Shown: positions 5,423 to 23,644, numbered from the stretch's first letter. The stretch: 32,843 nucleotides of DNA from an uncultured Candidatus Saccharibacteria bacterium (GCA_964452605.1 CAYVMF010000001.1:1-32843), one strand, 5' to 3'. Notes: a model not told the origin generated them from the letters alone. Numbers and translations: made by a program.

Positions 5423-5440
5423 AGACTTATTGTAACACTT

Positions 5441-6033: not shown

Positions 6034-6165
6034 CTGTTGAGGACTTTTGATAATGACTAGAAACAAAAAGCTCCTAGCCAGCGGTTCCTTGCGGAACCTA
6101 CACAGGTTTCCCTGCATAGCCTCAACAGCACTCTGACTAGGAGTTTTTTACTGTTGAGGGCTTTT
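6034..6165 (-). ncRNA. Candidate structured RNA or cis-regulatory element: three-way junction with two GNRA-capped hairpins, closed by a long stem with a U-run and flanked by 15-nt repeats
   Basis: Read on the minus strand. P1 is CUCCUAGUCAG/CUGGCUAGGAG (6071-6081 with 6133-6143). P2 is CUAUGCAGG-GAAA-CCUGUGUAG. P3 is GGUUCC-GCAA-GGAACC. A U-run (CUUUUUGUUU) follows. The junction strand CUGUUGAGG (6128-6120) is complementary to both flanking copies of CCUCAACAG (plus-strand ctgttgagg at 6034-6042 and 6151-6159). The strand call rests only on the GNRA loops. Confidence 0.3.
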
Positions 6166-6169
6166 CGCC

Positions 6170-6328
6170 ATGCCAGTACTACTACTTGGTTTAGGCTACT
6201 TTCTACAATATTCAGTTGTTGTACAATTATACCTCTTTTTTGAAGCTTGGAGAACTACTTATCGTACTCATCTTACGAGGTGGAGTCAAAATGATGTTAT
6301 GACTTTTTTCAGAAAAGGTGTAGAGTAA
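6170..6328 (+). CDS. Possible 52-aa membrane peptide ORF upstream of the GC-rich gene at 6359
   Basis: Hand translation gives MPVLLLGLGYFLQYSVVVQLYLFFEAWRTTYRTHLTRWSQNDVMTFFRKGVE*. Hydrophobic N-terminus, basic tail. I saw no clear promoter or SD. It ends 30 nt before the next ATG. Confidence 0.2.
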   Translation: MPVLLLGLGYFLQYSVVVQLYLFFEAWRTTYRTHLTRWSQNDVMTFFRKGVE

Positions 6329-6358
6329 CAAAATCCCACCAACCACAGGAGATATGCC

Positions 6359-6676
6359 ATGGGAATCCTAACGTTTGTTAAGAAGTTGTTTACGCCTTCT
6401 CCGGAAACGCTCCGGCTACAGCAACAGAACGCCGACGAAGAGCTCAAGGGGAAAATCCTCTTGGTACTGGAAGACCCCTACTGTGCCACTTACCGCGGCG
6501 GGATCGTGCCTTTTGAGGTCATTCGCCATCAGCTGAGAGCGTGGCCGCTCGAGCAGATCCTTCGCATGATGAAGGAGCTCATCACGGCACGCCTCGTCCA
6601 AAGAATTGACGGCGGCAAGAGTGAAAAACCTGCCACCGAAGTTCAGTACGTCAGTTCTGCCTCCAGGCGCGACTAA
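6359..6676 (+). CDS. GC-rich orphan protein (105 aa), possibly winged-helix-like
   Basis: GGAG lies 8 nt upstream of the ATG, unlike native genes. GC is clearly above the neighbours. The central pattern KILLVLEDP....IVPFEVIRHQL..WPLEQILRMMKELITARLVQRI resembles a wHTH recognition module. Its own terminator follows. Confidence 0.6.
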   Translation: MGILTFVKKLFTPSPETLRLQQQNADEELKGKILLVLEDPYCATYRGGIVPFEVIRHQLRAWPLEQILRMMKELITARLVQRIDGGKSEKPATEVQYVSSASRRD

Positions 6677-6701
6677 GTAGTAGGCCTAACGGGCAGGTCA
6701 T

Positions 6702-6748
6702 AAACCGCCGTCAAGCGAAAAACGGAGTCGCTTCGGCGGTTTTGTTTT
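6702..6748 (+). terminator. Intrinsic terminator of the 6359 gene
   Basis: AACCGCCG...CGGCGGTT outer stem with inner AAGCGA/TCGCTT pairing, followed by TTTGTTTTG. Confidence 0.7.
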
Positions 6749-6777
6749 GCACACAAATCAAGCTGCTGGCTTGAAAA

Positions 6778-7113
6778 CTACATCTGCCTTGCTTCCATTA
6801 TTTCAATGGTTGCACCAGGAATACCAAAGTGAGGATGATCTTTAAAAAGCTCTGCTACCGCTTCAGCGGATTCCCCTTGTACGTATGATGATAGCATCAT
6901 GTCATTTTTGACATCTTCTACACCAGAAGCGCTCACTCGCTTTGTTTTCCCAAGAGCGATTGTGTTGAGAATGGTATCTTTGTGTGAAGCTGTCCACGCA
7001 TCCCACTCTGCTCTCATTTTTGCCTCAGCATCCTTACGTTCTGCTTCTGGTTTCTTCATCCATTCCTCCATACCAAGCGCTGGCGCCATGTATATAACTG
7101 TGAAATTTTTCAT
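6778..7113 (-). CDS. Small conserved-looking hypothetical protein (111 aa)
   Basis: Native composition. TGcTACACT lies 8 nt upstream of the ATG. I recognise no motif with confidence. Confidence 0.55.
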   Translation of the reverse strand: MKNFTVIYMAPALGMEEWMKKPEAERKDAEAKMRAEWDAWTASHKDTILNTIALGKTKRVSASGVEDVKNDMMLSSYVQGESAEAVAELFKDHPHFGIPGATIEIMEARQM

Positions 7114-7173
7114 ATACTTTTAGTGTAGCATGGTGGGCATGCACCTCGTGTTTAACTTAGAACCCTTCCAGAC

Positions 7174-8220
7174 TTATTTTTTGACTGCACTTATTAAGTT
7201 GGCAATGTCAGTAATAGAGACCTCTTTCTGGTTACCCTGGAGGTACCCATCATCTTGATGTGCAAATATAGTTTGAGCTATTTCTTTAACAATTGCATCT
7301 CTGTTTTCTGGCAGCTTATTATTTCTCACTAAAATATCAAAAGATTTTAGTGAGTTACTTCTATGAGTATTTAAATTATACATATGCAGGTTTGCATTGT
7401 AATTCTTTAAAACTTCTCTTATCAGAACGTATAAGAAAAATAGTACTGAGAAGCGAATAAGAAATGCAAAAATATAGTATTCCCAGTCCGCTACAGGCTC
7501 TGGTTGATTAATTTCTTTTAAGAGGGGTAAAAACCAGTAAACAAGAATCCATATACCAGCCCCAATTAAAATTAGAAACATAACACCAAAAAGTCTTGAT
7601 AGATTTCTATTTTTGACTGATTGATCTAAAAAAATAGTCCCATACTCGCTGACAGTGTCCACCAATGAAAAATCTTGGACCGACCTATTTAATTGTTCTA
7701 TATTATCTTTTACTTGAAGAATTTGTGTTAGGCCTTGGTTTAATTCACCCAATTTTTGGTCCACTTCTCCGACTTTTTGCTGAAAAGAACTCTGCGCATT
7801 ATTTACAACTTCTTGTGTTTGGTTTTTGTAGGTACTTAATGCTTCTTCTATTTTTTGTTTATGCTCCTCTCTAACGTACATCTGAAATTCAGAAATTTTT
7901 GGAGCTGTTACTGTATAAAAATCCCTTATCTCTTGGAGCAAGGCGTTGGCACGGAACTGCGTCTGTTCAACTGTCTCTCCCGTCTGTGTATTGAAAGACT
8001 GAGCCCTTGATTTTAAATCAATCAATTGAGAAAAAATTGCTTGCAGTTTTCCGGCATCTGTTGGAATAAATAAATGTATATTGTTCTCAAATTCTAATAC
8101 CAACTTACTTAGTCGTTGCAGCAAAGATGATATCTCTTCAAAAGAAGAGCTGTAGTTGCTGCCTAAATCAGTTCTTTTAAGACTTTCCCAATTAAGACTC
8201 TTAAGTGTATTAAAATCCAT
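7174..8220 (-). CDS. AT-rich island protein 1: N-terminal coiled coil (about 200 aa), 2 TM helices and a C-terminal helical domain
   Basis: 348-aa ORF, visibly more AT-rich than neighbours. TM helices LFGVMFLILIGAGIWILVYWFL and YYIFAFLIRFSVLFFLYVLI. AGAGTAGAAT lies 7 nt upstream of the ATG. The architecture recalls 2-TM effector modules (e.g. SLATT-like), but I cannot verify any family. Confidence 0.65.
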   Translation of the reverse strand: MDFNTLKSLNWESLKRTDLGSNYSSSFEEISSLLQRLSKLVLEFENNIHLFIPTDAGKLQAIFSQLIDLKSRAQSFNTQTGETVEQTQFRANALLQEIRDFYTVTAPKISEFQMYVREEHKQKIEEALSTYKNQTQEVVNNAQSSFQQKVGEVDQKLGELNQGLTQILQVKDNIEQLNRSVQDFSLVDTVSEYGTIFLDQSVKNRNLSRLFGVMFLILIGAGIWILVYWFLPLLKEINQPEPVADWEYYIFAFLIRFSVLFFLYVLIREVLKNYNANLHMYNLNTHRSNSLKSFDILVRNNKLPENRDAIVKEIAQTIFAHQDDGYLQGNQKEVSITDIANLISAVKK

Positions 8221-8315
8221 TCACTTCATTCTACTCTCTTTGTCAAATAAATCCAGCAACCCCCTATACCTATTAAACACGTAAAAGGGGCCATACACAA
8301 AGAGCCGTGTACTGA

Positions 8316-8594
8316 CTCTTTGAAGATCTAATTGAACAACTTCAAAAACTTTTAGACGAGTTTGATTTATATCAGATAGGAATGAAAGAAAAGATAGAAA
8401 GCGAGGTTAGAAGGTTTAAACATTTTCAAAGAGGAGTTTTAGGTATTAAGGATAAAATTGAGATCGGAGATGTAGATATACGCAACTATGCAAAATACAT
8501 ACTCAGGGAGGGTAAGGACTCAGAGAAGAGAGACCTCATGCAGTCATTTAAAAGTAAGCTGATACTTTTAAATAAGAGAATAGTTCTCGAATGA
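8316..8594 (+). pseudogene. Possible C-terminal remnant of a (large serine) recombinase
   Basis: The 70-aa ORF from 8382 stays open in frame upstream to a stop at 8313-8315 (LFEDLIEQLQKLLDEFDLYQIG-MKEKIESEV...). The tail DIRNYAKYILREGKDSEKRDLMQSFKSKLILLNKRIVLE resembles recombinase-family C-termini as I recall them. No catalytic domain is present. Recollection only, not verified. Confidence 0.25.
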
Positions 8595-8595
8595 A

Positions 8596-9837
8596 TTATT
8601 TATGTTCAGTAAGTGGCTCGTGTTCTTCATGGAGAATTTCCCCGGTTTCGGAGTTCTTAACTACTTGATGGTATTCGTTTTTTTCTTTGTTAACATCCAT
8701 ATAATAATCAACACCTTCCCTTAATTTTTTGTCGCCACTAGATTTCCAGCCTTGCACTATAGTCCTTACTCGTCCAAAGCCAAGTCTGTTCAATTTGGTT
8801 TTAAGTAACTCCTTAATAGTGATTTTTTCCTTTAAGCTTATTCCATTCCAGCTATGTCCACATGTAAATTTAAACATAAAGGAATCATTAAGAATCTCTG
8901 CTTCATAGACTTCTATGGGGTTTTTACATGTACTGCAAATCCCGCTTTTTGTAGACAGGAGATAGTTTTCATACTCTTCGGACATTGATTGAGGCTGGGC
9001 TTCCTTTAGTTTTTGAGTAATTATTTCTGTTAGCTTTTCCTTGTTAACTATCATTTCTTTAATCTTTTCTTTATCGAGACTTACAACCAAACCTTCCGAT
9101 GTTAGAACTTTGTATTCTGGGCCCAGTGTTCTTCGAATTGGTTTTTTGTAATCAAAGTACTTAGAGAGTAATTCATTATGCGCTAAAACCATAAAGTCAT
9201 GTATATAGATACCTATGGTTTGACTAGCATCTCTGATCTCCGTGATGAGTTTTTCAATTTCAGCCCTGTCCCATTTTCTCCAATCATGCCCATGAACATG
9301 TGTACAGCTTTGTAACTCTTGCGATGCGGCATAGACCTTTTCTCTTAGAATATCGGTCTCTTTTGCAAGTGTCTCCTGAGCTTTTATTAATGGGGAGATA
9401 GCAGATATCCAGCCACTAAAAATATATGACATGCCTATATATTGATTGGTAAATGCAAAATAGTCACTAAATACTTTTTTTGTGAACTCTGACCACTTTC
9501 TCTCACCGTCTAATAAGCATTCTATTTCAGAGGTTGGCACAAAAATATCACCATGTTTTTTAGGGATCTTTAACTCGTAGGCAATCATACATGAGTCCAT
9601 AAGAATTAAAGGTGCTGCTGTTGCACCTAAAGTATTTAATCTATCTTGTGTATCTTTGGCTGCTTTTAAAAGCTCTTTATATATATCGTATTGAACTTGT
9701 ATTCTATGCTCATGTTTAGCATTACTCCTTTGGATGAGTAATGCTATTATCCAACCAACAATGGCAATGAAGATCGTAGCAATAAGCGTTAGCTGGTCTA
9801 CGCTGGAAAAGTCTATCCGAGAAGCAATATTAATCAT
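8596..9837 (-). CDS. AT-rich island protein 2: N-terminal TM anchor, large helical domain, C-terminal zinc-ribbon-like module
   Basis: 413-aa ORF. TM helix LTLIATIFIAIVGWIIALLI. CxxC...CGH cluster (CSTCKNPIEV...FKFTCGH). AGAGTAGAAT lies 6 nt upstream of the ATG, the same decamer as at gene 7174-8220. Confidence 0.65.
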   Translation of the reverse strand: MINIASRIDFSSVDQLTLIATIFIAIVGWIIALLIQRSNAKHEHRIQVQYDIYKELLKAAKDTQDRLNTLGATAAPLILMDSCMIAYELKIPKKHGDIFVPTSEIECLLDGERKWSEFTKKVFSDYFAFTNQYIGMSYIFSGWISAISPLIKAQETLAKETDILREKVYAASQELQSCTHVHGHDWRKWDRAEIEKLITEIRDASQTIGIYIHDFMVLAHNELLSKYFDYKKPIRRTLGPEYKVLTSEGLVVSLDKEKIKEMIVNKEKLTEIITQKLKEAQPQSMSEEYENYLLSTKSGICSTCKNPIEVYEAEILNDSFMFKFTCGHSWNGISLKEKITIKELLKTKLNRLGFGRVRTIVQGWKSSGDKKLREGVDYYMDVNKEKNEYHQVVKNSETGEILHEEHEPLTEHK

Positions 9838-9938
9838 TTCCTAATTCTACTCTATAAAGATACTTTTGACCCATATAGGTCTTAAAGTACGTTTATTTAC
9901 AAAGCTGGGTTGTTAGGACAGTGACTCGTGTCCAACTA

Positions 9939-9961
9939 TCTACACCCGCTAGGACTCGAAC
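9939..9961 (-). pseudogene. Isolated tRNA 3'-end fragment (T-loop, 3' T-stem and acceptor 3' strand)
   Basis: The minus strand reads GTTCGAGTCCTAGCGGGTGTAGA. That is a canonical GTTCGAGTC T-loop, then 5 nt of T-stem, a 7-nt acceptor strand and a discriminator. No matching 5' acceptor strand or D/anticodon arms lie upstream. It differs from the 3' ends of both intact tRNAs in the window. Confidence 0.35.
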
Positions 9962-10015
9962 TTTTTTAACCGTTACAAATCAACCATGTCTGGTCTATAT
10001 GTACGAAAATTCCAT

Positions 10016-10089
10016 TGGCTGGGGTACAAGGGCTCGAACCTCGATTAACAGTTCCAGAAACTGCTGTCCTACCATTAGACGATACCCCA
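10016..10089 (-). tRNA. tRNA-Gln (anticodon CUG)
   Basis: I folded it by hand. Acceptor TGGGGTA/TACCCCA (U1:A72, typical of bacterial tRNA-Gln). D-arm GTCT-AATGGTA-GGAC. Anticodon arm GCAGT-TTCTGGA-ACTGT. T-arm CGAGG-TTCGAGC-CCTTG. Discriminator G and an encoded CCA. Confidence 0.9.
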
Positions 10090-10123
10090 TTCGTTGGTAA
10101 CTTCAAGAAAGTTACTGATTGCA

Positions 10124-10132
10124 ATACTAGCA
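10124..10132 (-). promoter_or_regulatory. Candidate extended -10 promoter for tRNA-Gln
   Basis: The minus strand reads TGCTAGTAT about 35 nt upstream of the tRNA 5' end. Confidence 0.35.
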
Positions 10133-10165
10133 TTTTCGTACTCTTTTCTCAACAGATATACATAC

Positions 10166-10195
10166 AACAAAAGCGAGGAACCTCCTCGCTTTTGT
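10166..10195. terminator. Intrinsic terminator downstream of the GC-rich lipoprotein gene
   Basis: ACAAAAGCGAGGA-ACC-TCCTCGCTTTTGT: 13-nt perfect arms with flanking A/T tracts. Confidence 0.8.
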
Positions 10196-10203
10196 ATGCG
10201 ACC

Positions 10204-10797
10204 TTAGCCGCACACTTTTCCAGGTCGCCACTTTTCGCGCGGCAACCATTCCCAATACCGGGAATCCATCCTGTGGAATTGCCCCACAAATGCGTGGAGA
10301 ATTTCGTGAGCAGATGTACCCCTGTCCTCCTTTCCTTGCCTATCAACGTATGTCGGGATGTAAATAACTCCACAATACCCGTCCCCTTCAAACAAATATC
10401 CCAACCGGCCGCATTCAGACAGGCACAGTACCTGATGCGGAGACAATTTTGTTTTTGAAACTTCAAATTGTCGCTGCGCAACCTGATGTGGGACTTGAAG
10501 CGGATAAAAGTTGAGGCGCTTGACCCCCTGCTCCACCTCTGCGAACCCTTTACCTTGGCGAGCTTGAACGCAAAGATGCAACTGGTCGTTAACTCCTTTG
10601 TCTACAGCTTCTTTGGTAAACCGCATATAGATGTTGCACACACCTTTTGTGTCGAGATACCCAACACCCTCTTTGTCATGAAGACGGATAGAGAGCGAAA
10701 AAGCTGGATTATTGACCCACTCGGGCAGCAGCATAGAAGCACATCCCGACAAAAGTAGCGTAGCGAAAGCTACCACAGTCAAAAGAAATCTGGTCAT
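10204..10797 (-). CDS. GC-rich orphan lipoprotein with an HExxH zinc-metallopeptidase-like motif
   Basis: 197-aa ORF. Signal peptide with lipobox (LLLSGC). C-terminal AHEILHAFVGQFH has HExxH plus a third His 7 residues later. A G-rich SD (AGGGGG) lies about 6 nt upstream of the ATG. GC is about 50% against about 40% in the flanks. Confidence 0.65.
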   Translation of the reverse strand: MTRFLLTVVAFATLLLSGCASMLLPEWVNNPAFSLSIRLHDKEGVGYLDTKGVCNIYMRFTKEAVDKGVNDQLHLCVQARQGKGFAEVEQGVKRLNFYPLQVPHQVAQRQFEVSKTKLSPHQVLCLSECGRLGYLFEGDGYCGVIYIPTYVDRQGKEDRGTSAHEILHAFVGQFHRMDSRYWEWLPREKWRPGKVCG

Positions 10798-10823
10798 GAG
10801 AACCCCCTAAAGAACATAGCCCT

Positions 10824-10829
10824 ATTATA
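10824..10829 (-). promoter_or_regulatory. -10 box (TATAAT) for the 10204-10797 gene
   Basis: The minus strand reads TAGAGTATAATAGGGC, 26 nt upstream of the ATG. I found no convincing -35. Confidence 0.4.
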
Positions 10830-10869
10830 CTCTATTTACAACACTAGAATATTGTGGTTTTTACTTAGT

Positions 10870-12525
10870 TTAGAGAACAAGTCTCACCAGTCTCAGCTGA
10901 TTATACGTATACGCTTCTTTAAGATGTTCAAACACGGGTGCTAGTTTTTTCGTGTCCATTTCTTTAAATCCTTTCTTTATCGCAGTCATATCTTTTTTCG
11001 CAGGAAGAATGTGCTCAATCTCTACGTCTTCACCCATCTCTACTAGTTTTTCAATGTGTCCGACTATTGTGTCTTCAGATATGCCACGCTCTGTAGCTAT
11101 TTCCTTTATACTTTTTCCAAGCTTAAGCATTTCCTGAGTTACTGCATGTGATGGCGCTTTTTCTTGTATCTCATCTGCCTCTTCATCGTCTAACTCCTCT
11201 ACACTTCCATGTCGCTCAAGCAGCCATTTCTCTTGAAGTACTCTGAGGTCTTTTTCTTCGTATTTTGCTACTGCATATTCTGCCTGATCGCTCTTGGCAC
11301 GAAAGTGAATATCTGCTTCACGAACCTCTTCAGCAACGGAAAGCGCCTGTGGGTTGAAGCCTTTTAAATTAAGCCCCTCAAGCGACTTAAGTCGAGAAAG
11401 CGCTACATACCCCTGCCCTGATGCAAAGGCACGACTGAGGTCAATTTCAGCCCTCTCGAGGGTCATTCCTTGGCTCTTGTGAACAGTGATAGCCCAGGCG
11501 AGTTTTAATGGAAGCTGAGAGATTTCAGCGCGAACTTTTCCATCCTCTTCGATACGCCATGTTTCTGCTTTAATGGTTACTCGTTTACCAGATGCCAATT
11601 CCACAACTGGTGCTTTGTCGCTTTCAAAAGCGACTATTTTACCCATAGAACCGTTTACGTATTTACGTTCAGCGTCGTTCTTTATACAAATTACTTTGGC
11701 GCCAATCTTTAGCTCCAAAATCTCATCTGCTAAGCAGTTATTTTTAAGTGATGCGAGTACTTGCCCTTTTCCTCTAGTCACCATTGTGTAGCGATACACC
11801 TCTCCCTCTAGTTTGGTAAAGGCTTGTCTGTTTATTTCATCTACGTTTTCGTTGTGCGTGTAGAGCTTAATATGATCTTCTGTATGCTTTTTAGTAAACG
11901 TCTCTTGAAGCGCGAGGAAGTGCTCTTCTTCGACTTCACCGCTACGTATCGCATTTAAAATATTTGTAAGTGTATCGTCATCCTGGCGGTACTGGTCTGT
12001 TAAATAACAAACCACGGGCTTCGCTTCTTTCCATGCACGTGAAGTAAATGCAAAGACGTCTTTGTTTTCGTAGGTGTCGTTATTCTTTACTACCGGCGGT
12101 AGCTGAAAAAAATCTCCCGTGAATACCACTTGCAGCCCACCGAATGGTTTGTCGTTTCGGCGTATGTGCTTACCGACTTTATCTAGCATGTCCACAAAAG
12201 AAGCGTGCAGCATAGATATCTCATCGATGATGAGCACTTGGGTTTCATTCCAGCGTTTATACAGTGTGGGCTTTTCTTCTATTGCATCTAGGTCGTACGG
12301 AGTGAGTTGCTGCTTAATACCGATACCACTCCACGCGTGGATGGTCGTACCACCTATGTGCGTTGATGCGATACCAGTAGAAGCAGTCACTGCGTAGCGT
12401 ACTCCATGCTTTTTTAAATAGGTAGTGTACTCACGAAGTGCGTATGATTTACCCGCTCCAGCAGCCCCAGTGAGAAACGTCGTATGACCTAATTTAAGAA
12501 TAGATAGCGCAGTAGCCTGAGTCAT
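10870..12525 (-). CDS. Pif1/RecD-family (SF1B) ATP-dependent DNA helicase with a C-terminal helix-turn-helix domain
   Basis: 551-aa ORF. Walker A GAAGAGKSY, Walker B LIIDEISM, motifs GDFFQLPPV and TVHKSQG. C-terminal HTH SIKEIATERGISEDTIVGHIEKLV. Confidence 0.85.
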   Translation of the reverse strand: MTQATALSILKLGHTTFLTGAAGAGKSYALREYTTYLKKHGVRYAVTASTGIASTHIGGTTIHAWSGIGIKQQLTPYDLDAIEEKPTLYKRWNETQVLIIDEISMLHASFVDMLDKVGKHIRRNDKPFGGLQVVFTGDFFQLPPVVKNNDTYENKDVFAFTSRAWKEAKPVVCYLTDQYRQDDDTLTNILNAIRSGEVEEEHFLALQETFTKKHTEDHIKLYTHNENVDEINRQAFTKLEGEVYRYTMVTRGKGQVLASLKNNCLADEILELKIGAKVICIKNDAERKYVNGSMGKIVAFESDKAPVVELASGKRVTIKAETWRIEEDGKVRAEISQLPLKLAWAITVHKSQGMTLERAEIDLSRAFASGQGYVALSRLKSLEGLNLKGFNPQALSVAEEVREADIHFRAKSDQAEYAVAKYEEKDLRVLQEKWLLERHGSVEELDDEEADEIQEKAPSHAVTQEMLKLGKSIKEIATERGISEDTIVGHIEKLVEMGEDVEIEHILPAKKDMTAIKKGFKEMDTKKLAPVFEHLKEAYTYNQLRLVRLVL

Positions 12526-12603
12526 GATTATGCAGTATATCAGGCGGAATTAAGTACAGCTGTTGATAGTAGAACGATTGTTCTTATTTTTTTATTTTTC
12601 GTA

Positions 12604-12612
12604 TGCTAGAAT
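12604..12612 (+). promoter_or_regulatory. Extended -10 promoter (TGcTAGAAT) for the GC-rich gene at 12647
   Basis: TGCTAGAAT lies 34 nt upstream of the ATG. The leader contains AAGGCAAGG as an SD-like element. Confidence 0.45.
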
Positions 12613-12646
12613 GACGCTTGAAAGTAACAACTTGAAAGGCAAGGCC

Positions 12647-13090
12647 ATGGAAACACTTGATTCTTACGCGACGGAGCGGCGGGAGAGAAAGGGTCTTCTT
12701 TTCCACTCCCCCTGCGCCACCTGTGGCTGTTGCATCGACGACCACATCGAACCGGACCGGTACGGCATTACCGATGAAGTAGCGAAACTGATGGGGAACG
12801 GAAGATGTTCTCTGTTTTCCTGCAAAGGGTTCAAGGTGCGTAAAAGCGACTTGAAACACATCGTGTACGTGTGCGCTCGGCGACTTTTCTTTGGCGAGCG
12901 GCAGGCGGAAGATTTCTGGGAGCACCCAGGTGTCAAAGAAGCCGCGCAAAAGCTTCTAGAAGAGAAGCTAGCTGAGTGGGAAGAAACCGAAAGCAAAGTT
13001 AACAAGTGGTGCGCCAATTACGGCTCAGTCATGATGATCGGTCTCACACGTGATGGCAGATCAGTAGCATTTAATATTGGGACAGCGTAA
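12647..13090 (+). CDS. GC-rich orphan Cys-rich (putative zinc-binding) protein, 147 aa
   Basis: I prefer the ATG at 12647 (SD-like AAGG upstream) over the track's TTG at 12563. Cys cluster CATCGCCIDDH...CSLFSCKGF. Acidic helical segment KLLEEKLAEWEETESK. GC is clearly above the flanks. Terminator follows. Confidence 0.6.
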   Translation: METLDSYATERRERKGLLFHSPCATCGCCIDDHIEPDRYGITDEVAKLMGNGRCSLFSCKGFKVRKSDLKHIVYVCARRLFFGERQAEDFWEHPGVKEAAQKLLEEKLAEWEETESKVNKWCANYGSVMMIGLTRDGRSVAFNIGTA

Positions 13091-13109
13091 CTGCGCCAAT
13101 ACATACTAC

Positions 13110-13140
13110 AAAAAAGCGTAACCAGGGGTTACGCTTTTTT
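13110..13140. terminator. Bidirectional intrinsic terminator (12647 gene / ftsX, convergent)
   Basis: AAAAAAGCGTAACC-AGG-GGTTACGCTTTTTT: 14-nt perfect arms. Confidence 0.85.
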
Positions 13141-13155
13141 GCTTCTTAACTAAGA

Positions 13156-14088
13156 TTAAATCTGAAGATATTTTCTAACGGCAAGGAGAGAAGAAACAAC
13201 TGCGAGCACGACACCAGAAAGAAGGAGTAGCCCCCCAAGCTGGAAGAAGTGAGAAATAAAGAATGAGTGAAGATTAAGCCCCTCAAAGAAGAAAACTGTC
13301 TTTTTCGTAACCCATGCAGTTGCCGGCCAAAAGAGAACCAGTGTAATGACTGTTGCCACAAATGCGTATAGTACTGCTTCTACTACGAACGGACCACGGA
13401 TGAACATGTTTGACGCTCCCACAAGTTTCATCACAGCGATTTCATCTCTGTACACAAATATAGCGAGACGTATTGTATTGTAGACAATCATACAACTCAT
13501 AAGCACGAAGATAACTGAAAGCCAGAACCCAACAGTATTTGTCCAACCAATAATATTGTTTAATTTATCGATACTATCTTTTAGTTGATAGTAGTTAATC
13601 TTATCGACTGACCCTTCTGCGTCCCCTAGTAACCCAGAACCGCTTGCAAGCGCTTGTGCGATTACTTCATACTGAGATGTCTCTTTGGCGAGCACTGAGA
13701 GCGATGCACCGAACGGATTAGTGCCAAGCTCGTCTAACGCTTGAAGTGTAAGCTGATCCCCTTCGTGGCGAAGTTTAAAATCTGCTAATGCATCTTCACG
13801 TGAAGTATAGGTAACTTGTTTTACTTGAGGAAGTCCTAGAAGTTTAGCTTTTACGTCCTGAATCTGTTCCACAGACGCATCTGTAGTGAAGTAGACACGC
13901 ACGTCTACTTTTTCCTGCACCTGATCTAATGTATAGTCAAAAATCGCACGAAAGAGATAAAACGAAGTAATAATAGAAAGCGTAATCGTAAGAATGAAAA
14001 TAGAAGAAAGAGATACTGTACGGTTACGGTAAAACCCGCGGAAGCCAGCAGTAAGTATTCTTCGAGTGAGTGTCGTTTTTGATGTCAT
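13156..14088 (-). CDS. ftsX: Cell-division ABC transporter permease FtsX
   Basis: 310-aa ORF. One TM, a periplasmic domain, then three C-terminal TM helices. It sits immediately downstream of ftsE. Confidence 0.85.
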   Translation of the reverse strand: MTSKTTLTRRILTAGFRGFYRNRTVSLSSIFILTITLSIITSFYLFRAIFDYTLDQVQEKVDVRVYFTTDASVEQIQDVKAKLLGLPQVKQVTYTSREDALADFKLRHEGDQLTLQALDELGTNPFGASLSVLAKETSQYEVIAQALASGSGLLGDAEGSVDKINYYQLKDSIDKLNNIIGWTNTVGFWLSVIFVLMSCMIVYNTIRLAIFVYRDEIAVMKLVGASNMFIRGPFVVEAVLYAFVATVITLVLFWPATAWVTKKTVFFFEGLNLHSFFISHFFQLGGLLLLSGVVLAVVSSLLAVRKYLQI

Positions 14089-14100
14089 ATCTATAAGAAG

Positions 14101-14781
14101 CTACATTGTAAATTTACCAGACTTTTGATCTCGAATAACTCTTCCGTCTTCCATAGTAATCACTCGACGACCGAGATTATCTACAATGCCTTTGTTGTGT
14201 GTTGTCAAAATAACTGTTGTGCCAAGGTCGTTAATCTTCTTTAGAATCTGAACAATGTCGTAGGTGTTAAGCGGATCAAGGTTTCCTGTCGGCTCATCAG
14301 CGATAATAATTTCTGGACGATTAATAATCGCTCGCGCAATTGCTACTCGCTGCTGTTCTCCACCAGATAGCTGGTGTGGAAAATGATGCATTTTGTCTTT
14401 CAGGTCAACGAGGTCCATCACGTGCGGCACATCTTCTGCGATATCGTCGTCATGCTTACCTGCTGCCTCCATAGCAAATGCCACATTTTCATATGCAGTT
14501 TTGTTTGGAATGAGACGAAAATCTTGAAAGACTACACCAACCTTGCGGCGATAGTTTGTCATGTCTTTTCCACGCAACAAGTGAATGTCATCTGAATGGA
14601 AAGAAACTGTTCCTTCTGTTGGACCTTCCTCTGCAAGAAGAAGTTTAATGAGTGTTGTTTTCCCAGCACCAGAGTGCCCCACAATAGACACAAGCTCACC
14701 TGGATGAATGGTAATAGAAATATTATCGAGTACTTTGTTTCCATTCTCGTACTCTTTAGAAACTCGGTCAAAGTAAAGCAT
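14101..14781 (-). CDS. ftsE: Cell-division ABC transporter ATP-binding protein FtsE
   Basis: 226-aa ORF. Walker [10 protein letters not shown], signature LSGGEQQR, Walker [13 protein letters not shown]. TGaTACAAT lies 6 nt upstream of the ATG. Confidence 0.9.
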
Positions 14782-14821
14782 AGTTTTATTGTATCATACA
14801 TAAAATACACAATGTGAATAA

Positions 14822-14854
14822 GCAGAAAAGGCGCCCAACGGGCGCCTTTTCTGC
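14822..14854. terminator. Intrinsic terminator downstream of the M64-like peptidase gene
   Basis: GCAGAAAAGGCGCCC-AAC-GGGCGCCTTTTCTGC: 15-nt perfect arms. Confidence 0.85.
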
Positions 14855-14875
14855 TATCTGCTAATTAAGATCAGA

Positions 14876-16609
14876 CTACTTAGTAACGTTAATTACTTTT
14901 GTACCGATATTGTTAGCGGCGTCATACGCTTTTGCTGTAATCGTATGCGGACCTGAAGTAAATGTAGAATTCTTAACTGAGATTGAACAAGAATTTACGT
15001 TTGTACATGTCTTAAGTGTCGTCGCATCACGCATAAGCACAATCTTTGTAACTTTTATGTTATCTGTAGCTGTTGCTGCGATTGTAGTATTACCTGAACT
15101 TGGAATAGTCGCGCCATTTTGTGGGCTAGTAATATTTGCAACTGGAGCTGTACCGTCTACGAGCGTAACAGTAACCTGTGTTGAGGTAGCGAAGTTTCCA
15201 GAGTAGTCGAATGCTTTCACATGGAACTTATATGCTTTGTTTGTTTGACCAGTTGTGTCCCAACGTAGCTTGTACGGAGTTACAGATGTGGTGTCGATAA
15301 GCACATTGTCCTTATAGAGCTCAACTTTCTCAACAAAACCTGAGTTATCTGCTGTCGATGTAGCATGGAAGTAATACCACCCGCCAACGTTAGGTGTACT
15401 TGTAGAAGTAAGTGGAGAGGTAATAGCCGTAGTTGGTTTTACTGTATCAACTGGGTTATTGATGTTAACTGAAATAACCTCAGAAGTTCCTACGTTATTC
15501 ACGACATCAAACGCACGCACAGTAATAGTGTGTGGACCGTTTGCGAACTTCATTGAAGGAAACTGGAATGTAAAGGCTTCAATGTACAAAGTCTTATACA
15601 GTACCCCGTCCACCAGAAGCTCTACACGTGCAACACCCTGGTCATCACCTACAGTTGTGGTAATCGGAACAACACCAGTAAGTGTCTGACCTTGTGTGAG
15701 GTTAGTAATAGTTGCTGTTGGTGCGATAGTGTTAGTGTACGGACCAGCGTAGAAGTCTAGTCTTTCATTTACTGCGCGCTGAGAAATGACGTTAAAGTAC
15801 GTGTCAGTAATGATGTTCATCAAACTGTTCTGTGAAGCACGATAGTAATTCGGGAAGTTACACCCTTGTGTATAGTCAGCTGGTGCCACAAGCCCAACCC
15901 ACGATGCGGGCATTGTGCTTGAAGGGCTACAGTTCACCATATTAAACTCAGTCATACTTAGCTGGTACTCATCAGAAAGATTTCCAACTGAGTGCCCTCC
16001 GAGTTCGTGAAGGCCAATTAATGGACCAAATGTTCCGCTGTATGTAGCTGCAATTGGGTCGTCTCCTGCACCTCCATAATTTGAGTTGTTAACAATGATG
16101 AGTGCTTTATCATACGGAACACCCGCAGAAGTCATAAGTTGACCTGTGAGCGTACGATTACAAAGAATGAGTCTACCGTCATACACACACTGTAGGTCGT
16201 CGGTATTTTCAACGTAGTGGAACATAATCTGCTCTGCACGACTCTTAAATGGTTCTACCGCAAGGAACTGTGTAATCATACGATTGGCATCAGTATAAAA
16301 CTTTGGCATATCTGAGGCTGTGTAGTCGTCTCCGATGAGCGCGATATCAAGTGTTGTACTTGAGGTTGAGGTCGCAGATGTGGTTGTACCAGTTGGTTCG
16401 AGATACACCGCACCGTTAATAGATGTAAATGTTGGTGGCGGAGGCACCACTACAACAGGAGGTTTTTTAAAAGAACTAGCACGTTTTGTTGAAGGAGCTT
16501 CATGAGCTAACGCTACATATCCAAACGTGGAAGCAAGCAAAACTCCAGCAAGTAAAACGAATCCTCGAGTAGCAAGTCGGCTCCGAGTATCTGAAATAGA
16601 AATTGACAT
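14876..16609 (-). CDS. Secreted M64-like (IgA-peptidase family) zinc metallopeptidase with three C-terminal Ig-like repeats
   Basis: 577-aa ORF with an N-terminal TM/signal segment. HELGGHSVGNLSDEY fits the M64 HExxH...DEY arrangement. Three repeats of about 90 aa have the pattern V.(K/R)(V/I)(E/V)L..D...(L/I)......GPHTIT(V/A)(R/K)A(F/Y)D..(N/G)N. Confidence 0.7.
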   Translation of the reverse strand: MSISISDTRSRLATRGFVLLAGVLLASTFGYVALAHEAPSTKRASSFKKPPVVVVPPPPTFTSINGAVYLEPTGTTTSATSTSSTTLDIALIGDDYTASDMPKFYTDANRMITQFLAVEPFKSRAEQIMFHYVENTDDLQCVYDGRLILCNRTLTGQLMTSAGVPYDKALIIVNNSNYGGAGDDPIAATYSGTFGPLIGLHELGGHSVGNLSDEYQLSMTEFNMVNCSPSSTMPASWVGLVAPADYTQGCNFPNYYRASQNSLMNIITDTYFNVISQRAVNERLDFYAGPYTNTIAPTATITNLTQGQTLTGVVPITTTVGDDQGVARVELLVDGVLYKTLYIEAFTFQFPSMKFANGPHTITVRAFDVVNNVGTSEVISVNINNPVDTVKPTTAITSPLTSTSTPNVGGWYYFHATSTADNSGFVEKVELYKDNVLIDTTSVTPYKLRWDTTGQTNKAYKFHVKAFDYSGNFATSTQVTVTLVDGTAPVANITSPQNGATIPSSGNTTIAATATDNIKVTKIVLMRDATTLKTCTNVNSCSISVKNSTFTSGPHTITAKAYDAANNIGTKVINVTK

Positions 16610-16709
16610 GATTAATTAGAACGAATAGCTAAATAAATAAAATGACACGAGAAAGAACTGTACGTTCCTAAAGTGTATCACGCAAAGACAAGAATAATAT
16701 CAACAGATA

Positions 16710-17591
16710 TTACAAACCCTTTTCCGCCTCAATAAACGCATCAAGTTCTCCGCGTTCAAGTACCGCTTCTACATTACTAGTCTCCATGTCTGTTCGGTGG
16801 TCTTTTACCATTTTGTATGGATGAAGGACGTATGAACGTATTTGATTCCCCCACTCAATCTCAGTTGTTTTACTGATCTGTCGTCCTTCGATTTCTGCTT
16901 TTCGTTTTTCTTCTTCGAGTTTAAAAAGTTTTCCTTGGAGAATTTCAAGCGCTTTCTGTTTATTTCGCTCCTGCTCTCGTTCAGTTGCTACATGTACAGC
17001 AATATTTGTCGGCAAGTGCACAATACGCACTGCGGTCTCGCGTTTGTTTACATTTTGACCACCTGGACCGGACGACTTTGATGTTTCGATGCGGATTTCG
17101 TCAGGTGAAATCGCTTTATGCTCAACGGCAGGAACTACAGGTAATACCTCAACCATTGCAAATGATGTATGGCGTTTTGCTTGTGCGTTAAATGGAGAGA
17201 TACGCACCAGTCGATGTACACCTGATTCGTTCTTTAGTGCCCCATACACATGCTTACCGGTTATCTCAAGTGTAAGGTTACGAAAACCACCGTGGTCATT
17301 TCTGTTATCGTGAAGCACTGAATATGCAAAGCCTTGTCGTTTACAGTATGCGTCGTACATTTCGTAGAGCATGTGAGCGAAGTCTTCACTGTCATCTCCT
17401 CCTGCACCTGCGAGAATAGTAAGGATTGCGTTACCTTTATCAAGCGCTCCAACTCCATCACGCTTGTCTTTCAGTTCTTTAATCTGCTTAATTACTTCCT
17501 GAGCTTTTTCTTTGTCGTTCCAAAAATCTACCTCGTTCATACGAGCTTCGAGCTCTGCTATTTCTAGGTCTATATCTGAGGTGTTGTCCAT
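16710..17591 (-). CDS. prfB: Peptide chain release factor 2 with a reduced domain 1; single uninterrupted ORF
   Basis: SPF tripeptide (RISPFNAQ), GGQ (SGPGGQNVN) and an E. coli-like C-terminus (WGNQIRSYVLHPY). Only 293 aa. TGcTATACT lies 6 nt upstream of the ATG, and the start is only 23 nt from the rarA stop. Confidence 0.9.
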   Translation of the reverse strand: MDNTSDIDLEIAELEARMNEVDFWNDKEKAQEVIKQIKELKDKRDGVGALDKGNAILTILAGAGGDDSEDFAHMLYEMYDAYCKRQGFAYSVLHDNRNDHGGFRNLTLEITGKHVYGALKNESGVHRLVRISPFNAQAKRHTSFAMVEVLPVVPAVEHKAISPDEIRIETSKSSGPGGQNVNKRETAVRIVHLPTNIAVHVATEREQERNKQKALEILQGKLFKLEEEKRKAEIEGRQISKTTEIEWGNQIRSYVLHPYKMVKDHRTDMETSNVEAVLERGELDAFIEAEKGL

Positions 17592-17614
17592 TGATGTAGT
17601 ATAGCAAAATAGAT

Positions 17615-18742
17615 CTAGAGGTATTTTTTACCACGTAGCTTTTCTGGTAGAAGGTCTTCTTTGGTATATATTTCATACCCATCTCCATACCCAGCATCTT
17701 TCATGAGCTTTGTTGGTGCATTACGTATCATCATGGGGATAGGTAGGTTGCCAAGTGTTTGAGCCTCGTGGAGCGCCGCTTTGTATGCGTCATATACTAC
17801 TCGCTCTTTTGACGCCTGAGAAAGATAGATAACCCCGTGAGCGAGATTGATTCCACACTCAGGTAAGCCGATAGTCTCAACAGCCCTAAACACTTCATTT
17901 GACACCACAAGCGCTTGTGGGTCCTGCATACCAATGTCTTCGGATGCAAATATAACCATGCGACGTGCGATAAACTTTGGATCCTCTCCTGCTTCTATCA
18001 TGCGCGCCAGATAATAGAGTGCAGCATTTGGCTGAGAGGCTCGCATACTTTTGATAAACGCACTGATTGTATTGTGATGCTCTTCGCCCTTCTTGTCGTA
18101 ACGCAGATGTTTAGACTGTATCGTGTTTTTTAGATTTTCTACTGTTATCTCATCATAGAGTTCTTTTGTGTGCGAAATAACCCCAAGTGCTTGGCGAGCG
18201 TCTCCCGAGGCAAGCGCGATAATCCAATTCATCGCGTCATCTGGAATACCGTACCCAGTCCGAGAAAGAATCTCTTTCATTTCATCAGGAGTGAGTTCAT
18301 TTAACACAAACACACGTGTACGAGACAAAAGCGCGGGAATCACTTCAAACGAAGGATTTTCTGTTGTAGCGCCAATTAAAATAAGTTTTCCTTTTTCAAC
18401 ATACGGAAGAAGAAAGTCTTGCTGGGCTTTATTAAAACGATGAATTTCATCAAGAAAAAGAACCTTCGGGCCAAAAAGATCACCTCCTTTCTCAACGATA
18501 TTTCGTATATCGTCTTTTCCAGCAGACACAGCGGAAAGTTCGTGATAGTCAGCGTTGATTGCTTGTGCGTAGATGCGAGCAAGCGTCGTCTTGCCAACCC
18601 CAGGAGGACCCCAAAGGATAAATGAAAAAATGTGTTTCTTTTCTATTGCAACACGAAGAGGCTTACCATTTCCTACAAGATGTGACTGTCCAATGTATTC
18701 ATCAAGTGTCTTTGGGCGAAGAATGTGAGCAAGAGGTTCCAT
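17615..18742 (-). CDS. rarA: Replication-associated recombination protein A (RarA/MgsA, AAA+)
   Basis: Walker A GPPGVGKTT, Walker B LFLDEIHR, and the MgsA C-terminal motifs (ALYYLARM, FASEDIG). I chose the ATG at 18742 (MEPLAHILRPKTLDEY) because TGtTATACT lies 6 nt upstream of it. The track start at 18760 would sit inside that promoter. Confidence 0.88.
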   Translation of the reverse strand: MEPLAHILRPKTLDEYIGQSHLVGNGKPLRVAIEKKHIFSFILWGPPGVGKTTLARIYAQAINADYHELSAVSAGKDDIRNIVEKGGDLFGPKVLFLDEIHRFNKAQQDFLLPYVEKGKLILIGATTENPSFEVIPALLSRTRVFVLNELTPDEMKEILSRTGYGIPDDAMNWIIALASGDARQALGVISHTKELYDEITVENLKNTIQSKHLRYDKKGEEHHNTISAFIKSMRASQPNAALYYLARMIEAGEDPKFIARRMVIFASEDIGMQDPQALVVSNEVFRAVETIGLPECGINLAHGVIYLSQASKERVVYDAYKAALHEAQTLGNLPIPMMIRNAPTKLMKDAGYGDGYEIYTKEDLLPEKLRGKKYL

Positions 18743-18760
18743 ATAATAAGTATACACCAT

Positions 18761-18786
18761 ACATGTAGAACGAATGTTCTACATGT
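18761..18786. promoter_or_regulatory. Perfect 11-bp-arm palindrome abutting the rarA -10 box
   Basis: ACATGTAGAAC-GAAT-GTTCTACATGT lies between the capA-family stop (18793) and the rarA -10. No T-run follows, so it is not an obvious terminator. Confidence 0.4.
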
Positions 18787-18792
18787 CAACAA

Positions 18793-19809: not shown

Positions 19810-19897
19810 GCTAGTGAGTATACCAATTTCATTACCCTGGAACTAAATTGATATCTTCACTCAAATTAGCTAGAATAGAGCGACTGTTTTTACATTA

Positions 19898-19970: not shown

Positions 19971-19976
19971 CACGAA

Positions 19977-20006: not shown

Positions 20007-20020
20007 TGTATTAGATTTAA

Positions 20021-23612: not shown

Positions 23613-23644
23613 GTGCTGTATTCTACCATAAATCCTTTAAATAT

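Follow-up and report, generated by a model that had tools for sequence, protein, structure and literature searches.

AbiZ is an abortive-infection protein of Lactococcus lactis pTR2030. Its phenotype is abortive infection with premature lysis (PMC13064643, PMC7182436) and it cooperates with the phage holin (PMC13064643, PMC6356687), this phenotype being known for the lactococcal AbiZ only. AbiP, another membrane-anchored lactococcal protein, consists of an N-terminal transmembrane anchor and a cytoplasmic nucleic-acid-binding domain, both of which are needed for its phenotype (PMC13064643). Genomic islands of Patescibacteria enriched in defence genes have already been described, including a type I restriction-modification (R-M) island (PMC12455944).

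The locus analysed here lies in a stretch of 32,843 nucleotides from an uncultured Candidatus Saccharibacteria bacterium, referred to as the window. On balance we favour the explanation that the segment 7159-10014 of this Patescibacteria genome, which is Paceibacteria-like, is an island acquired horizontally and varying between strains, namely a wrecked recombinase element carrying two independent single-gene defence candidates. The features on which this explanation is built are as follows.

7159-10014, no strand assigned: the island, filling a hypervariable slot from tRNA-Gln to the promoter of a 111-aa gene (6778-7113)
7174-8220, minus strand: open reading frame of protein 1 (348 aa), an AbiZ-like candidate
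8228-8237, minus strand: AGAGTAGAAT, exact match, -10-like (TAGAAT), 7 nt before the ATG of protein 1
8322-8594, plus strand: 5'-truncated large serine recombinase gene, last 91 codons, located by tblastn
8596-9837, minus strand: open reading frame of protein 2 (413 aa), a candidate new defence family
9844-9853, minus strand: AGAGTAGAAT, exact match, -10-like, 6 nt before the ATG of protein 2
9941-9961, minus strand: tRNA-like 3' fragment GTTCGAGTCCTAGCGGGTGTA, a T-loop and acceptor-like tail, 55 nt downstream of tRNA-Gln
10016-10089, minus strand: tRNA-Gln(CTG), native and conserved

A strain-variable island at the end of tRNA-Gln

The island is 2,856 bp in length and has a GC content of 0.352 as compared to 0.425 for the whole window. 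On one side the island stops exactly where tRNA-Gln has its 3' end, and on the other it stops just upstream of the 111-aa gene, whose promoter is conserved. Both flanks are kept at 89-97% nucleotide identity in two close relatives (L056 and L057), with the helicase, lipoprotein and tRNA-Gln on one side and the 111-aa gene onward on the other, and the DNA between them differs. In L056, positions 12589-10015 of the window align at 88.8% and positions 7158-6769 at 94.4%, and 3,126 bp of unrelated DNA, encoding a NUDIX protein and a 2'-5' RNA ligase that do not look like defence genes, lie between the two aligned flanks. A third allele is present at the junction with the 111-aa gene in L058 and L059, and the tRNA-Gln slot holds at least three alleles between near-identical flanks. 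Synteny with more distant relatives ends exactly at the end of tRNA-Gln, and the order of helicase and tRNA-Gln is kept, with unrelated DNA beyond, in L012, L013, L014, L018, L019 and L056.

The AT-richness of both cargo genes, reported in the earlier note, is borne out: GC values of 0.338 for the protein 1 gene and 0.358 for the protein 2 gene are the two lowest among the 31 open reading frames of the window, corresponding to z-scores of -2.2 and -1.8 (mean of the other reading frames 0.443, sd 0.048). GC3 of the two genes is less anomalous and falls within 1 sd of the window mean. This last value is what could be put forward for regarding the region as native core DNA whose low GC and orphan genes arose by chance or as an annotation artefact. 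However, the segment is missing in close relatives that retain both flanks at the identities given above, and it holds a recombinase pseudogene. The two genes are thus not syntenic core genes of the clade; the flank comparison refutes a native origin, which we regard as having almost no probability left.

The favoured island resembles tRNA-adjacent islands and defence hot spots in its edge placed exactly at a tRNA 3' end, its strain-variable content, its low GC and its defence-type cargo. It differs from them in being very small (2.9 kb), in lacking an intact integrase and flanking direct repeats, and in the presence of at least three alleles in one slot. A search of positions 6300-10400 revealed neither terminal or att repeats delimiting the island nor, at its distal edge, a directly repeated tRNA 3' end. 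The island would occupy a recombination hot spot which starts at the 3' end of tRNA-Gln.

The tRNA-Gln at this edge was called by both ARAGORN and Rfam (57.7 bits), as the earlier note had recognised. A second tRNA feature, a 3' fragment at 9941-9961, is borne out in part. The sequence GTTCGAGTCCTAGCGGGTGTA matches the T-loop consensus GTTCRANTCC, for which 0.48 occurrences are expected per window and three were found, one of them in tRNA-Thr, and it has a format similar to tRNA 3' ends (16/21 at best). But only 10/11 bases agree with the T-arm of tRNA-Gln (p about 0.04) and the Rfam scan did not call the fragment. Much clearer repeats of the 3' part of tRNA-Gln are seen at the same place in L056 (15/15) and L018 (16/16). 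Judged from its sequence, GTTCGAGTCCTAGCGGGTGTA may be the scar of an earlier integration.

A truncated large serine recombinase gene

Between the two cargo genes lies a plus-strand reading frame, and the earlier suggestion that it resembles a recombinase C-terminus proved correct. Positions 8322-8588 on the plus strand correspond to residues 350-440 of 442-aa large serine recombinases, with 41% and 45% identity to the recombinases of L007 and L025 over the C-terminal 91 residues (tblastn E-values of 2e-15 and 7e-17, computed against this window alone). The remnant includes a 70-aa open reading frame (8382-8594) and lies tail to tail with the protein 2 gene. A Pfam scan of this short reading frame gave no match, and coiled-coil or transmembrane noise was all that came from its Pfam, PADLOC and PHROGs scans. 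The two query recombinases contain PF00239 (Resolvase), PF07508 (Recombinase) and PF13408 (Zn_ribbon_recom), and a tblastn search of the whole window with both full-length proteins recovered no catalytic or recombinase domain, nothing else being matched below E 0.2.

Related intact recombinases adjoin protein 2 homologues in L007-L010 and L025, and at the edge of L027 about 7 kb separate the protein 2 homologue from a divergent, partial recombinase. P0005, a homologue of protein 1, has a large serine recombinase, a Rep protein and a reverse transcriptase as neighbours. The locus is like the large serine recombinase elements (phages, ICEs and cassette elements) in that the remnant aligns to their recombinases and that intact copies of such enzymes flank homologues of both cargo genes elsewhere. 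It is unlike them in that the catalytic and recombinase domains are gone, the element cannot move and no att sites were identified in it. We propose that the island would be the leftover of a mobile element whose movement depended on a large serine recombinase. The first ~350 codons of the recombinase gene would have been lost, which would leave the element immobilised, their place now being taken by the protein 1 gene and its promoter. The remnant, the strain-variable island and the defence neighbours described below largely support the earlier proposal of a decayed integrative element with defence-type cargo.

Serine recombinases normally leave no duplications of tRNA 3' ends, and insertions abutting a tRNA are more commonly the work of tyrosine integrases. 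It may therefore be that two different events left the tRNA scar and the recombinase.

The recurrence of both families beside large serine recombinases, together with the membrane location of both proteins, which is shared by many entry and superinfection exclusion proteins, would also fit genes that serve the mobile element itself, for example through exclusion of second or related copies or through post-segregational retention, rather than acting against lytic phages. However, for most protein 2 homologues no recombinase lies within 8 kb, and the genes that precede them are chromosomal defence genes instead, and here the element is dead while both reading frames are intact with conserved motifs. 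We consider a role in serving the element to be distinctly unlikely.

Promoters and independence of the two cargo genes

The same decamer, AGAGTAGAAT, precedes both start codons at a distance of 6-7 nt, and these exact copies are the only two in the window. Native genes of the window carry TGnTAnAnT 6-9 nt before the ATG, and by comparison both island promoters are without the TG extension. This agrees with the earlier description of the two -10 elements. A one-mismatch copy, AGAGTATAAT, however, precedes the native gene 10204-10797, and therefore the style of the decamer is not unique to the island. Position of the -10 so near to the ATG implies a leaderless or near-leaderless mRNA, as predicted for protein 1. 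A separate -10 element without TG would serve each cargo gene, at a position suited to a leaderless transcript.

The identical 10-nt element at a like distance from both start codons, and the adjacency of the genes within one 2.9-kb island, could suggest that proteins 1 and 2 form one two-component system, and a two-gene unit was implied by the title of the earlier note. That idea is not sustained, as not one of about 45 related loci carries both families: a protein 1 relative is absent from all 41 protein 2 loci, and protein 2 from all five protein 1 loci. In addition, the opposite-strand recombinase remnant separates the two genes, and a relationship between the two families was rejected since their profiles are unrelated (hhalign probability 12%). 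The absent co-occurrence effectively refutes a two-component system, to which we give very little credence; as judged from these sequence comparisons, the cargo genes are independent modules and not a pair.

Protein 1 is probably related to AbiZ

In protein 1, about 200 residues of cytoplasmic coiled coil are followed by a transmembrane hairpin (about 206-231 and 246-270) and then by a helical C-terminal domain, which is conserved. The AF2 model (all helical, pLDDT 74) and the hydropathy profile, with hydrophobic segments at about residues 206-224 and 247-265, agree on this arrangement, which had been read from the sequence in the earlier note. Eight close homologues (alignment A2) range from 348 to 412 aa and vary in the length of their coiled coil. 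A profile search extended the superfamily to 3,013 cluster representatives at E<=1e-3, the named members being from Patescibacteria, Bacteroidota and Vibrio.

Domain searches were silent on this superfamily. Protein 1 itself yielded nothing beyond coiled-coil or transmembrane noise in Pfam, PADLOC and PHROGs. No match came from 10 distant relatives scanned with Pfam, from 86 superfamily members scanned with NCBIfam or from a PDB sequence search with the family profile. Foldseek comparison of the model with the PDB returned only low-TM helical-bundle matches with no mechanistic hint. The family has no relatives in IMG/VR, and the proteins of the window have none among INPHARED phages or PLSDB plasmids apart from one Vibrio gene.

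Protein 1 itself does not match the PADLOC model of AbiZ (PDLC02354) even at E<=1, its list at this threshold consisting of ZorA, LeoC, LeoBC, PDC-M13C and spbK, all coiled-coil noise. The AbiZ model is nevertheless matched by 3 of the 86 superfamily members. In P0182, residues 100-315 match positions 189-396 of the 398-position AbiZ profile with an E-value of 1.6e-6, and P0184 matches at E 6e-4. The A2 profile in turn aligns with P0182 over residues 163-348 of protein 1 (hhalign probability 98.8%, E 6.5e-17). The link is transitive, runs through the single model PDLC02354 and involves a stretch that is partly transmembrane sequence. Since some members of its superfamily match AbiZ, protein 1 is probably AbiZ-like. 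The earlier note had recognised neither protein as a described defence family; this holds for protein 2, which has no match, and probably fails for protein 1.

Like protein 1, AbiZ is a single-gene, mobile-element-borne protein without a recognisable domain or fold match (PMC13064643). The C-terminal half of AbiZ (positions 189-396) is colinear with the half that is conserved in the protein 1 superfamily, both containing a pre-membrane motif, a transmembrane hairpin and a C-terminal domain. In contrast, the N-terminal half of protein 1 is a coiled coil of variable length, the homology covering only the C-terminal half of the AbiZ profile, and the host is a Patescibacteria bacterium instead of a Firmicute.

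The family is found in a setting of mobile DNA and defence, as seen in the remnant beside the gene, the P0005 contig and a superfamily member on the Vibrio plasmid pFP31, which is present among Hhe, a HEPN-associated protein, a GIY-YIG nuclease and AbiH. Another superfamily member sits after an HTH_3 repressor. Contexts of the closest homologues (L001, L002, L054 and L055) are only weakly suggestive, with DUF559, a MazE-like gene and, at 5 kb, HsdR as neighbours. As a probable remote relative of AbiZ with a juxtamembrane conserved C-terminal domain, protein 1 would, on infection, perturb the membrane or the phage lysis clock, with premature lysis or loss of membrane integrity as the outcome, as reported for AbiZ.

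Protein 2 is a membrane-anchored zinc-ribbon protein

In protein 2, an N-terminal membrane anchor leads into a helical bundle in the cytoplasm, and the protein continues with a CCCH zinc ribbon and closes with a beta domain of five strands. Alignment A3 and the AF2 model (pLDDT 86.5) both agree with the N-terminal anchor, helical domain and zinc-ribbon-like CxxC...CGH module noticed earlier. The zinc ribbon is formed by C301, C304, C326 and H328, with G327 also nearly invariant. The helical bundle carries an invariant D185-W-R-x-W, D214 and H220-N221, and no counterpart of a bundle with these residues was identified.

All named members among its 51 homologues are from Patescibacteria. Neither protein 2 nor any of 37 family members had a significant match in Pfam, PADLOC or PHROGs, and a PDB sequence search with the family profile gave no significant match. 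The zinc ribbon was considered as a ZnF-UBP domain and this was rejected, the best PDB match (USP16, E 0.36) being not significant. Foldseek searches of the model against the PDB and BFVD returned only low-TM helical-bundle matches with no mechanistic hint, and no relatives of the family are present in IMG/VR. The long form of protein 2 has no conserved downstream partner. A short subfamily alone keeps a conserved neighbour, of 237 aa.

Protein 2 shares with AbiP a single N-terminal anchor and a cytoplasmic body, the latter ending in protein 2 with the zinc ribbon and beta domain. It differs from the membrane-anchored, single-gene lactococcal AbiP and AbiC in having no sequence match to any PADLOC model, those of the Abi proteins among them. 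Nucleic-acid binding by protein 2 is a conjecture. On one contig the C-terminal module forms a fusion with a T4 UvsY-like recombination mediator, and here it is about 94% identical to that of a cellular member of the family. A phage decoy or a shared domain for target binding would be compatible with this fusion. We propose that protein 2 would be tethered by one helix to the inner face of the membrane, where its zinc-ribbon/beta module would sense or bind a phage component, possibly DNA or the recombination machinery. The protein would then abort or exclude the infection at the membrane.

Defence neighbourhoods

In at least eight distinct loci the protein 2 homologue has a recognised defence gene directly or a short way upstream of it. 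In L004, AbiEii, a type I R-M system and AAA_13 precede the homologue. Neighbours of protein 2 homologues further include AAA_21/AAA_15 (L025), AAA_13 (L026), AbiEii, DpnI and HEPN_AbiV (L027), SLFN_AlbA_2 (L029), RelA_SpoT (L032), DUF4238 (L024) and GmrSD (L045), and in L044, L046 and L049 the homologue adjoins type I R-M together with an OLD-like ATPase. The homologues of L003, L035, L037 and L038 are placed among housekeeping genes. From this gene context we infer an anti-phage function of the cargo and the two mechanisms proposed above; the protein 2 neighbours and the superfamily link of protein 1 to AbiZ back the idea of defence cargo raised in the earlier note.

Proteins 1 and 2 could instead be accessory membrane proteins whose role lies outside defence, for example in envelope maintenance, stress response or interaction of the episymbiont with its host cell, carried on mobile DNA and found near defence genes merely because variable regions gather accessory genes of all kinds. 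In favour of this, neither protein shows a detectable catalytic or defence domain, some homologues are placed among housekeeping genes, and L056 carries its NUDIX protein and 2'-5' RNA ligase in the same slot. However, the upstream defence genes recur in at least eight independent protein 2 loci despite the streamlined genomes, and the superfamily of protein 1 extends to the AbiZ model, one of its members being the Vibrio plasmid gene found among Hhe and AbiH. We therefore hold a non-defence role to be rather unlikely.

For the defence cargo that we favour, we suggest only tentatively, as one possibility among others, that protein 2 founds a new, Patescibacteria-specific, single-gene, membrane-tethered anti-phage family whose zinc-ribbon/beta module engages the phage and has apparently been exchanged with phages.

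Significance for Patescibacteria

The standard tools find nothing in this island. The link to AbiZ suggests that this protein, hitherto lactococcal, would join a superfamily whose sequence clusters number over 3,000 and have no Pfam or NCBIfam match. Protein 2, being lineage-specific, represented by about 50 clusters and recurrently found beside Abi, R-M and ATPase genes, is a candidate for phage challenge, and the multi-allele tRNA-Gln slot provides a natural presence/absence comparison in metagenomes. To our knowledge, Patescibacteria are thought to have few defences beyond restriction-modification. If the proposal for protein 2 is true, then together with the AbiZ-like gene it would mean that ultra-small episymbiotic bacteria carry lineage-specific abortive-infection genes which are invisible to defence finders.

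Limits and alleles of the island

The features of the island and its edge are as follows.
7174-8220, minus strand: protein 1 ORF, 348 aa
8382-8594, plus strand: ORF between proteins 1 and 2, 70 aa
8596-9837, minus strand: protein 2 ORF, 413 aa
9941-9961, minus strand: tRNA-like fragment GTTCGAGTCCTAGCGGGTGTA, laid out like the 3' end of a tRNA (position 53 up to and including the discriminator base)
10016-10089, minus strand: tRNA-Gln(CTG)

More distant relatives were recovered via the flanking PIF1-type helicase (10870-12525), and closer relatives were retrieved by exact-sequence look-up of the 111-aa protein encoded on the other flank (6778-7113). The helicase-found relatives are Patescibacteria MAGs labelled Paceibacterota, Nomurabacteria or Parcubacteria, in which the synteny of window genes 10204-21958 is kept. 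In six of them tRNA-Gln is located after the helicase or a lipoprotein gene, and in all six the DNA past the tRNA 3' end is unrelated. The closer relative L056 aligns to window positions 12589-10015 at 88.8%, to 7158-6769 at 94.4% and beyond these at 96-98%, and its slot holds 3,126 bp with genes differing from those of the island (L056 2830-5955). This alternative allele encodes a 203-aa and a 98-aa protein, a 2'-5' RNA ligase-like protein (2H phosphoesterase), a 113-aa protein and a NUDIX hydrolase, the three proteins named by length being small unknown ones.

Since the flanks align and the middle differs in L056, the window-specific segment is 7159-10014 (2,856 bp, GC 0.352). One of its edges is the final base of tRNA-Gln, and at the other edge all alleles meet at the extended -10 element of the 111-aa gene. 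On that side, L057 has the same allele as L056 while L058 and L059 present a third sequence. The island is absent from these relatives, and the locus, a hypervariable slot in which at least three alleles occur, is not core DNA; the reading of the region as native DNA is effectively refuted.

GC content is 0.33-0.37 across 7001-10000 against about 0.43 in the rest of the window, and the genes for proteins 1 and 2 have the lowest GC among 31 ORFs (0.338 and 0.358, mean 0.443; z = -2.2 and -1.8), with GC3 deviating less than overall GC. The AGAGTAGAAT decamer is present in exactly two copies in the window, 7 nt before the ATG of protein 1 and 6 nt before that of protein 2. In a comparison of the upstream regions of all long ORFs, TGnTAnAnT proved typical of native genes, its end 6-9 nt from the ATG (for example at 1720-1735, 5423-5440, 14782-14800 and 17592-17610), and both island genes keep this -10-to-ATG geometry without the TG extension, in agreement with the earlier note. 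In many native genes there is no space for a Shine-Dalgarno sequence between the extended -10 and the ATG, which suggests that leaderless mRNAs are the norm in this genome. Since AGAGTATAAT, a copy of the decamer with one mismatch, precedes the conserved native gene 10204-10797, this style of motif is not exclusive to the island.

Recombinase remnant and tRNA-Gln flank

The presence of a recombinase-like fragment between the two genes, suspected from the sequence, is confirmed. The 70-aa ORF has a tblastn match to the C-terminus of a 442-aa protein which adjoins protein 2 homologues (L007-L010, L025) and contains Resolvase, Recombinase and Zn_ribbon_recom domains. With full-length recombinases as queries, residues 350-440 match 8322-8588(+) at 41-45% identity (E 2e-15 and 7e-17), and the rest of the recombinase has no other match anywhere in the 32.8-kb window. 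This pseudogene lies tail to tail with protein 2, its end one base from the stop codon, and the position of its missing 5' part is now taken by the protein 1 gene and promoter. The mobile element is thus dead, and its present arrangement arose through at least two events.

The recombinases of two of these loci (L007 5227-6555 and L025 4654-5982) are 94% identical in protein sequence. With respect to the protein 2 homologue they point in opposite directions, the intervening genes differ, and the protein 2 genes of the two loci share only about 65% DNA identity. It follows that the recombinase moves or inverts on its own, without its neighbours.

The GTTCGAGTCCTAGCGGGTGTA fragment has the tRNA-like layout that had been described for it, but only 10/11 of its bases match the 3' part of tRNA-Gln itself (p about 0.04). 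The T-loop consensus GTTCRANTCC, with 0.48 occurrences expected per window, was found three times, one of them in tRNA-Thr. Perfect repeats of the tRNA-Gln 3' part are present in L056 (15 nt at +45, about 2871-2885) and in another relative, L018 (16 nt at +158, about 18394-18409), with 0/300 shuffles reaching the score in either case, and they resemble footprints of repeated integration at tRNA-Gln. From these repeats, we read the tRNA-Gln 3' flank as a probable recurrent integration site in this clade and the fragment in the window as its likely decayed scar. No repeat was found at the far edge of the island. Duplications of tRNA 3' ends are not the usual product of serine recombinases, and the scar may therefore stem from another event than the recombinase.

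Protein 2

The earlier note had asked whether homologues of the two genes co-occur as a pair. Both families occur together in none of the loci of protein 2 relatives (0/41) or protein 1 relatives (0/5), and the two profiles are unrelated. A single two-gene system is thus effectively refuted.

Protein 2 has 51 homologues, and the named ones are all from Patescibacteria (Buchananbacteria, Taylorbacteria, Pacebacteria). The family alignment is well conserved, with invariant residues C107, G111, W143, D185-W-R-x-W189, D214, H220-N221 and R235 and nearly invariant C301, C304, C326, G327 and H328. In the AF2 model, which has high confidence (pLDDT 86.5), a transmembrane helix leads into a helical bundle; the other elements are two beta hairpins, a zinc ribbon and, at the C-terminus, a beta domain of five strands. 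Most of the protein is probably cytoplasmic, judging from the positive residues that follow the anchor and from the Cys/His site. No match to protein 2 was found in Pfam, PADLOC, PHROGs, PDB or BFVD. Its neighbourhoods represent about 20 distinct loci.

Genes near protein 2 homologues
L004: AbiEii, HsdR, HsdM/S, AAA_13, then the homologue
L025: opposite-strand serine recombinase, AAA_21/AAA_15 ATPase, then the homologue
L026: AAA_13
L027: AbiEii, DpnI, HEPN_AbiV
L029: Schlafen/AlbA_2 protein
L032: RelA/SpoT-domain protein
L024: DUF4238
L045: GmrSD
L044, L046, L049: type I R-M with OLD-like ATPase
L007: serine recombinase, 203-aa gene, hydrolase

The homologues of L003, L035, L037 and L038 are surrounded by housekeeping genes, and a rival explanation is that the island proteins are accessory proteins without a role in defence. 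Because the upstream partner is different each time and the long form has no downstream partner in common, we treat protein 2 as a stand-alone module accumulating in defence islands.

A short subfamily (L043 976-1689; L044 and L049 8831-9547) is without the C-terminal beta domain, and in every case a conserved protein of 237-238 aa (56% identity) is encoded no more than 3 nt downstream. The pair found in L044 and L049 ends a type I R-M operon containing an OLD-like AAA_15-TOPRIM ATPase. The short form and the 237-238-aa protein may constitute a distinct two-gene system.

One further ORF, P0059 (L062 132-947, assembly GCA_025491015.1), combines a T4 UvsY-like N-terminus (PDB 4ZWS, E 3e-5) with the zinc-ribbon/beta module of the family, which is about 94% identical, by manual alignment count, to the C-terminus of the cellular member P0020. 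Either a phage and the cellular family have recently exchanged sequence, or the assembly is chimeric.

Protein 1

Eight close homologues of protein 1 (35-57% identity) were found, none of them annotated. Their alignment has four parts, of which the first two are a conserved N-terminus and a coiled coil whose length varies. The third is the motif Y[GA]xIFxxQA, immediately ahead of the first of two hydrophobic segments seen in the hydropathy profile, and the fourth, after the second segment, is the strongly conserved KxYxxNxHxYxLNxHRxNSLxSF ... IVKEIAQTIF. The AF2 model is all helical (pLDDT 74), and the charge distribution suggests that both termini are cytoplasmic. Foldseek, PDB, Pfam, PHROGs and NCBIfam gave no match.

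An exhaustive profile search recovered 3,013 cluster representatives with E<=1e-3, of which 1,388 reach E<=1e-10; one representative is from the Bacteroidota species Hufsiella ginkgonis. Most have 320-350 aa and match about 200 positions at the C-terminal end. In a PADLOC scan, 3/86 superfamily members matched the model of the lactococcal abortive-infection protein AbiZ; residues 100-315 of P0182 align to profile positions 189-396 of 398 (E 1.6e-6), and P0184 matches with E 6e-4. The protein 1 family profile is linked to P0182 over window residues 163-348 (hhalign probability 98.8%, E 6.5e-17), and P0184 to P0004, a 53% homologue of protein 1 (BLASTP E 6e-18). Protein 1 itself does not match the PADLOC AbiZ model, and the relationship, reached through P0182 and P0184, is therefore transitive. 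AbiZ causes phage-infected lactococci to lyse about 15 minutes early, is thought to work with the holin and has no recognisable domain (PMC13064643, PMC7182436, PMC6356687).

Genomic contexts of protein 1 relatives
P0005: flanked by a Rep gene with a large serine recombinase and, at its opposite end, by a reverse transcriptase
P0006: adjoins a MazE-like gene
P0004: adjoins a DUF559 protein
P0009: IS110 transposase nearby
P0211: directly after an HTH_3 repressor
WP_272788435.1 (L063): same-strand array on Vibrio tubiashii plasmid pFP31 (NZ_CP117031.1 184795-203283)

The Vibrio array holds Hhe, a HEPN-associated protein, a 5'-nucleotidase, the superfamily member WP_272788435.1, a GIY-YIG nuclease, AbiH and an AAA protein. 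Its short genes are 100-200 nt apart and resemble integron cassettes.

Other features of the window

A LOOT RNA (Rfam RF03000) is located at 6083-6197(-), about 1 kb from the island, with 78.3 bits against a gathering score of 46.4. Directly beside it is a second strain-specific segment of 510 bp (6259-6768), which L056 and L057 lack, although both align at 94-97% on either side of it; its ORF 6359-6676(+) is unusually GC-rich (GC 0.55, GC3 0.67).

The genes rpsP (23313-23612) and that for RNase R (24415-26355) are separated by about 800 nt (23620-24410) with a GC content of 0.5-0.59, no convincing ORF and no match in Rfam or ARAGORN. A T-loop-like GTTCAAGTCC is present at 23874-23883(+). The tmRNA gene is a frequent neighbour of rnr, and this stretch may encode a structured RNA of divergent sequence, for instance tmRNA, or may be an insert of foreign DNA with high GC.

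Discussion

The reading of the island with the best support is that of a serine-recombinase element, now decayed, at a tRNA-Gln hot spot, with two independent candidate abortive-infection or exclusion genes. We infer that either candidate may defend against phages. Protein 1 would act on membrane integrity or lysis timing in an AbiZ-like manner, and protein 2 would recognise a phage component by its zinc-ribbon/beta module. A second rival explanation, besides that of accessory proteins without a role in defence, is that the island proteins provide exclusion functions serving the element itself.

Genomic islands with defence genes have already been reported in Patescibacteria (PMC12455944), and hence this kind of object is known. 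What is new is protein 2 as a lineage-specific, defence-associated family with no detectable relatives or fold match, the assignment of protein 1 to a superfamily that is very large and unannotated and appears to include AbiZ, and a well-delimited, multi-allele slot which could be tracked in metagenomes.
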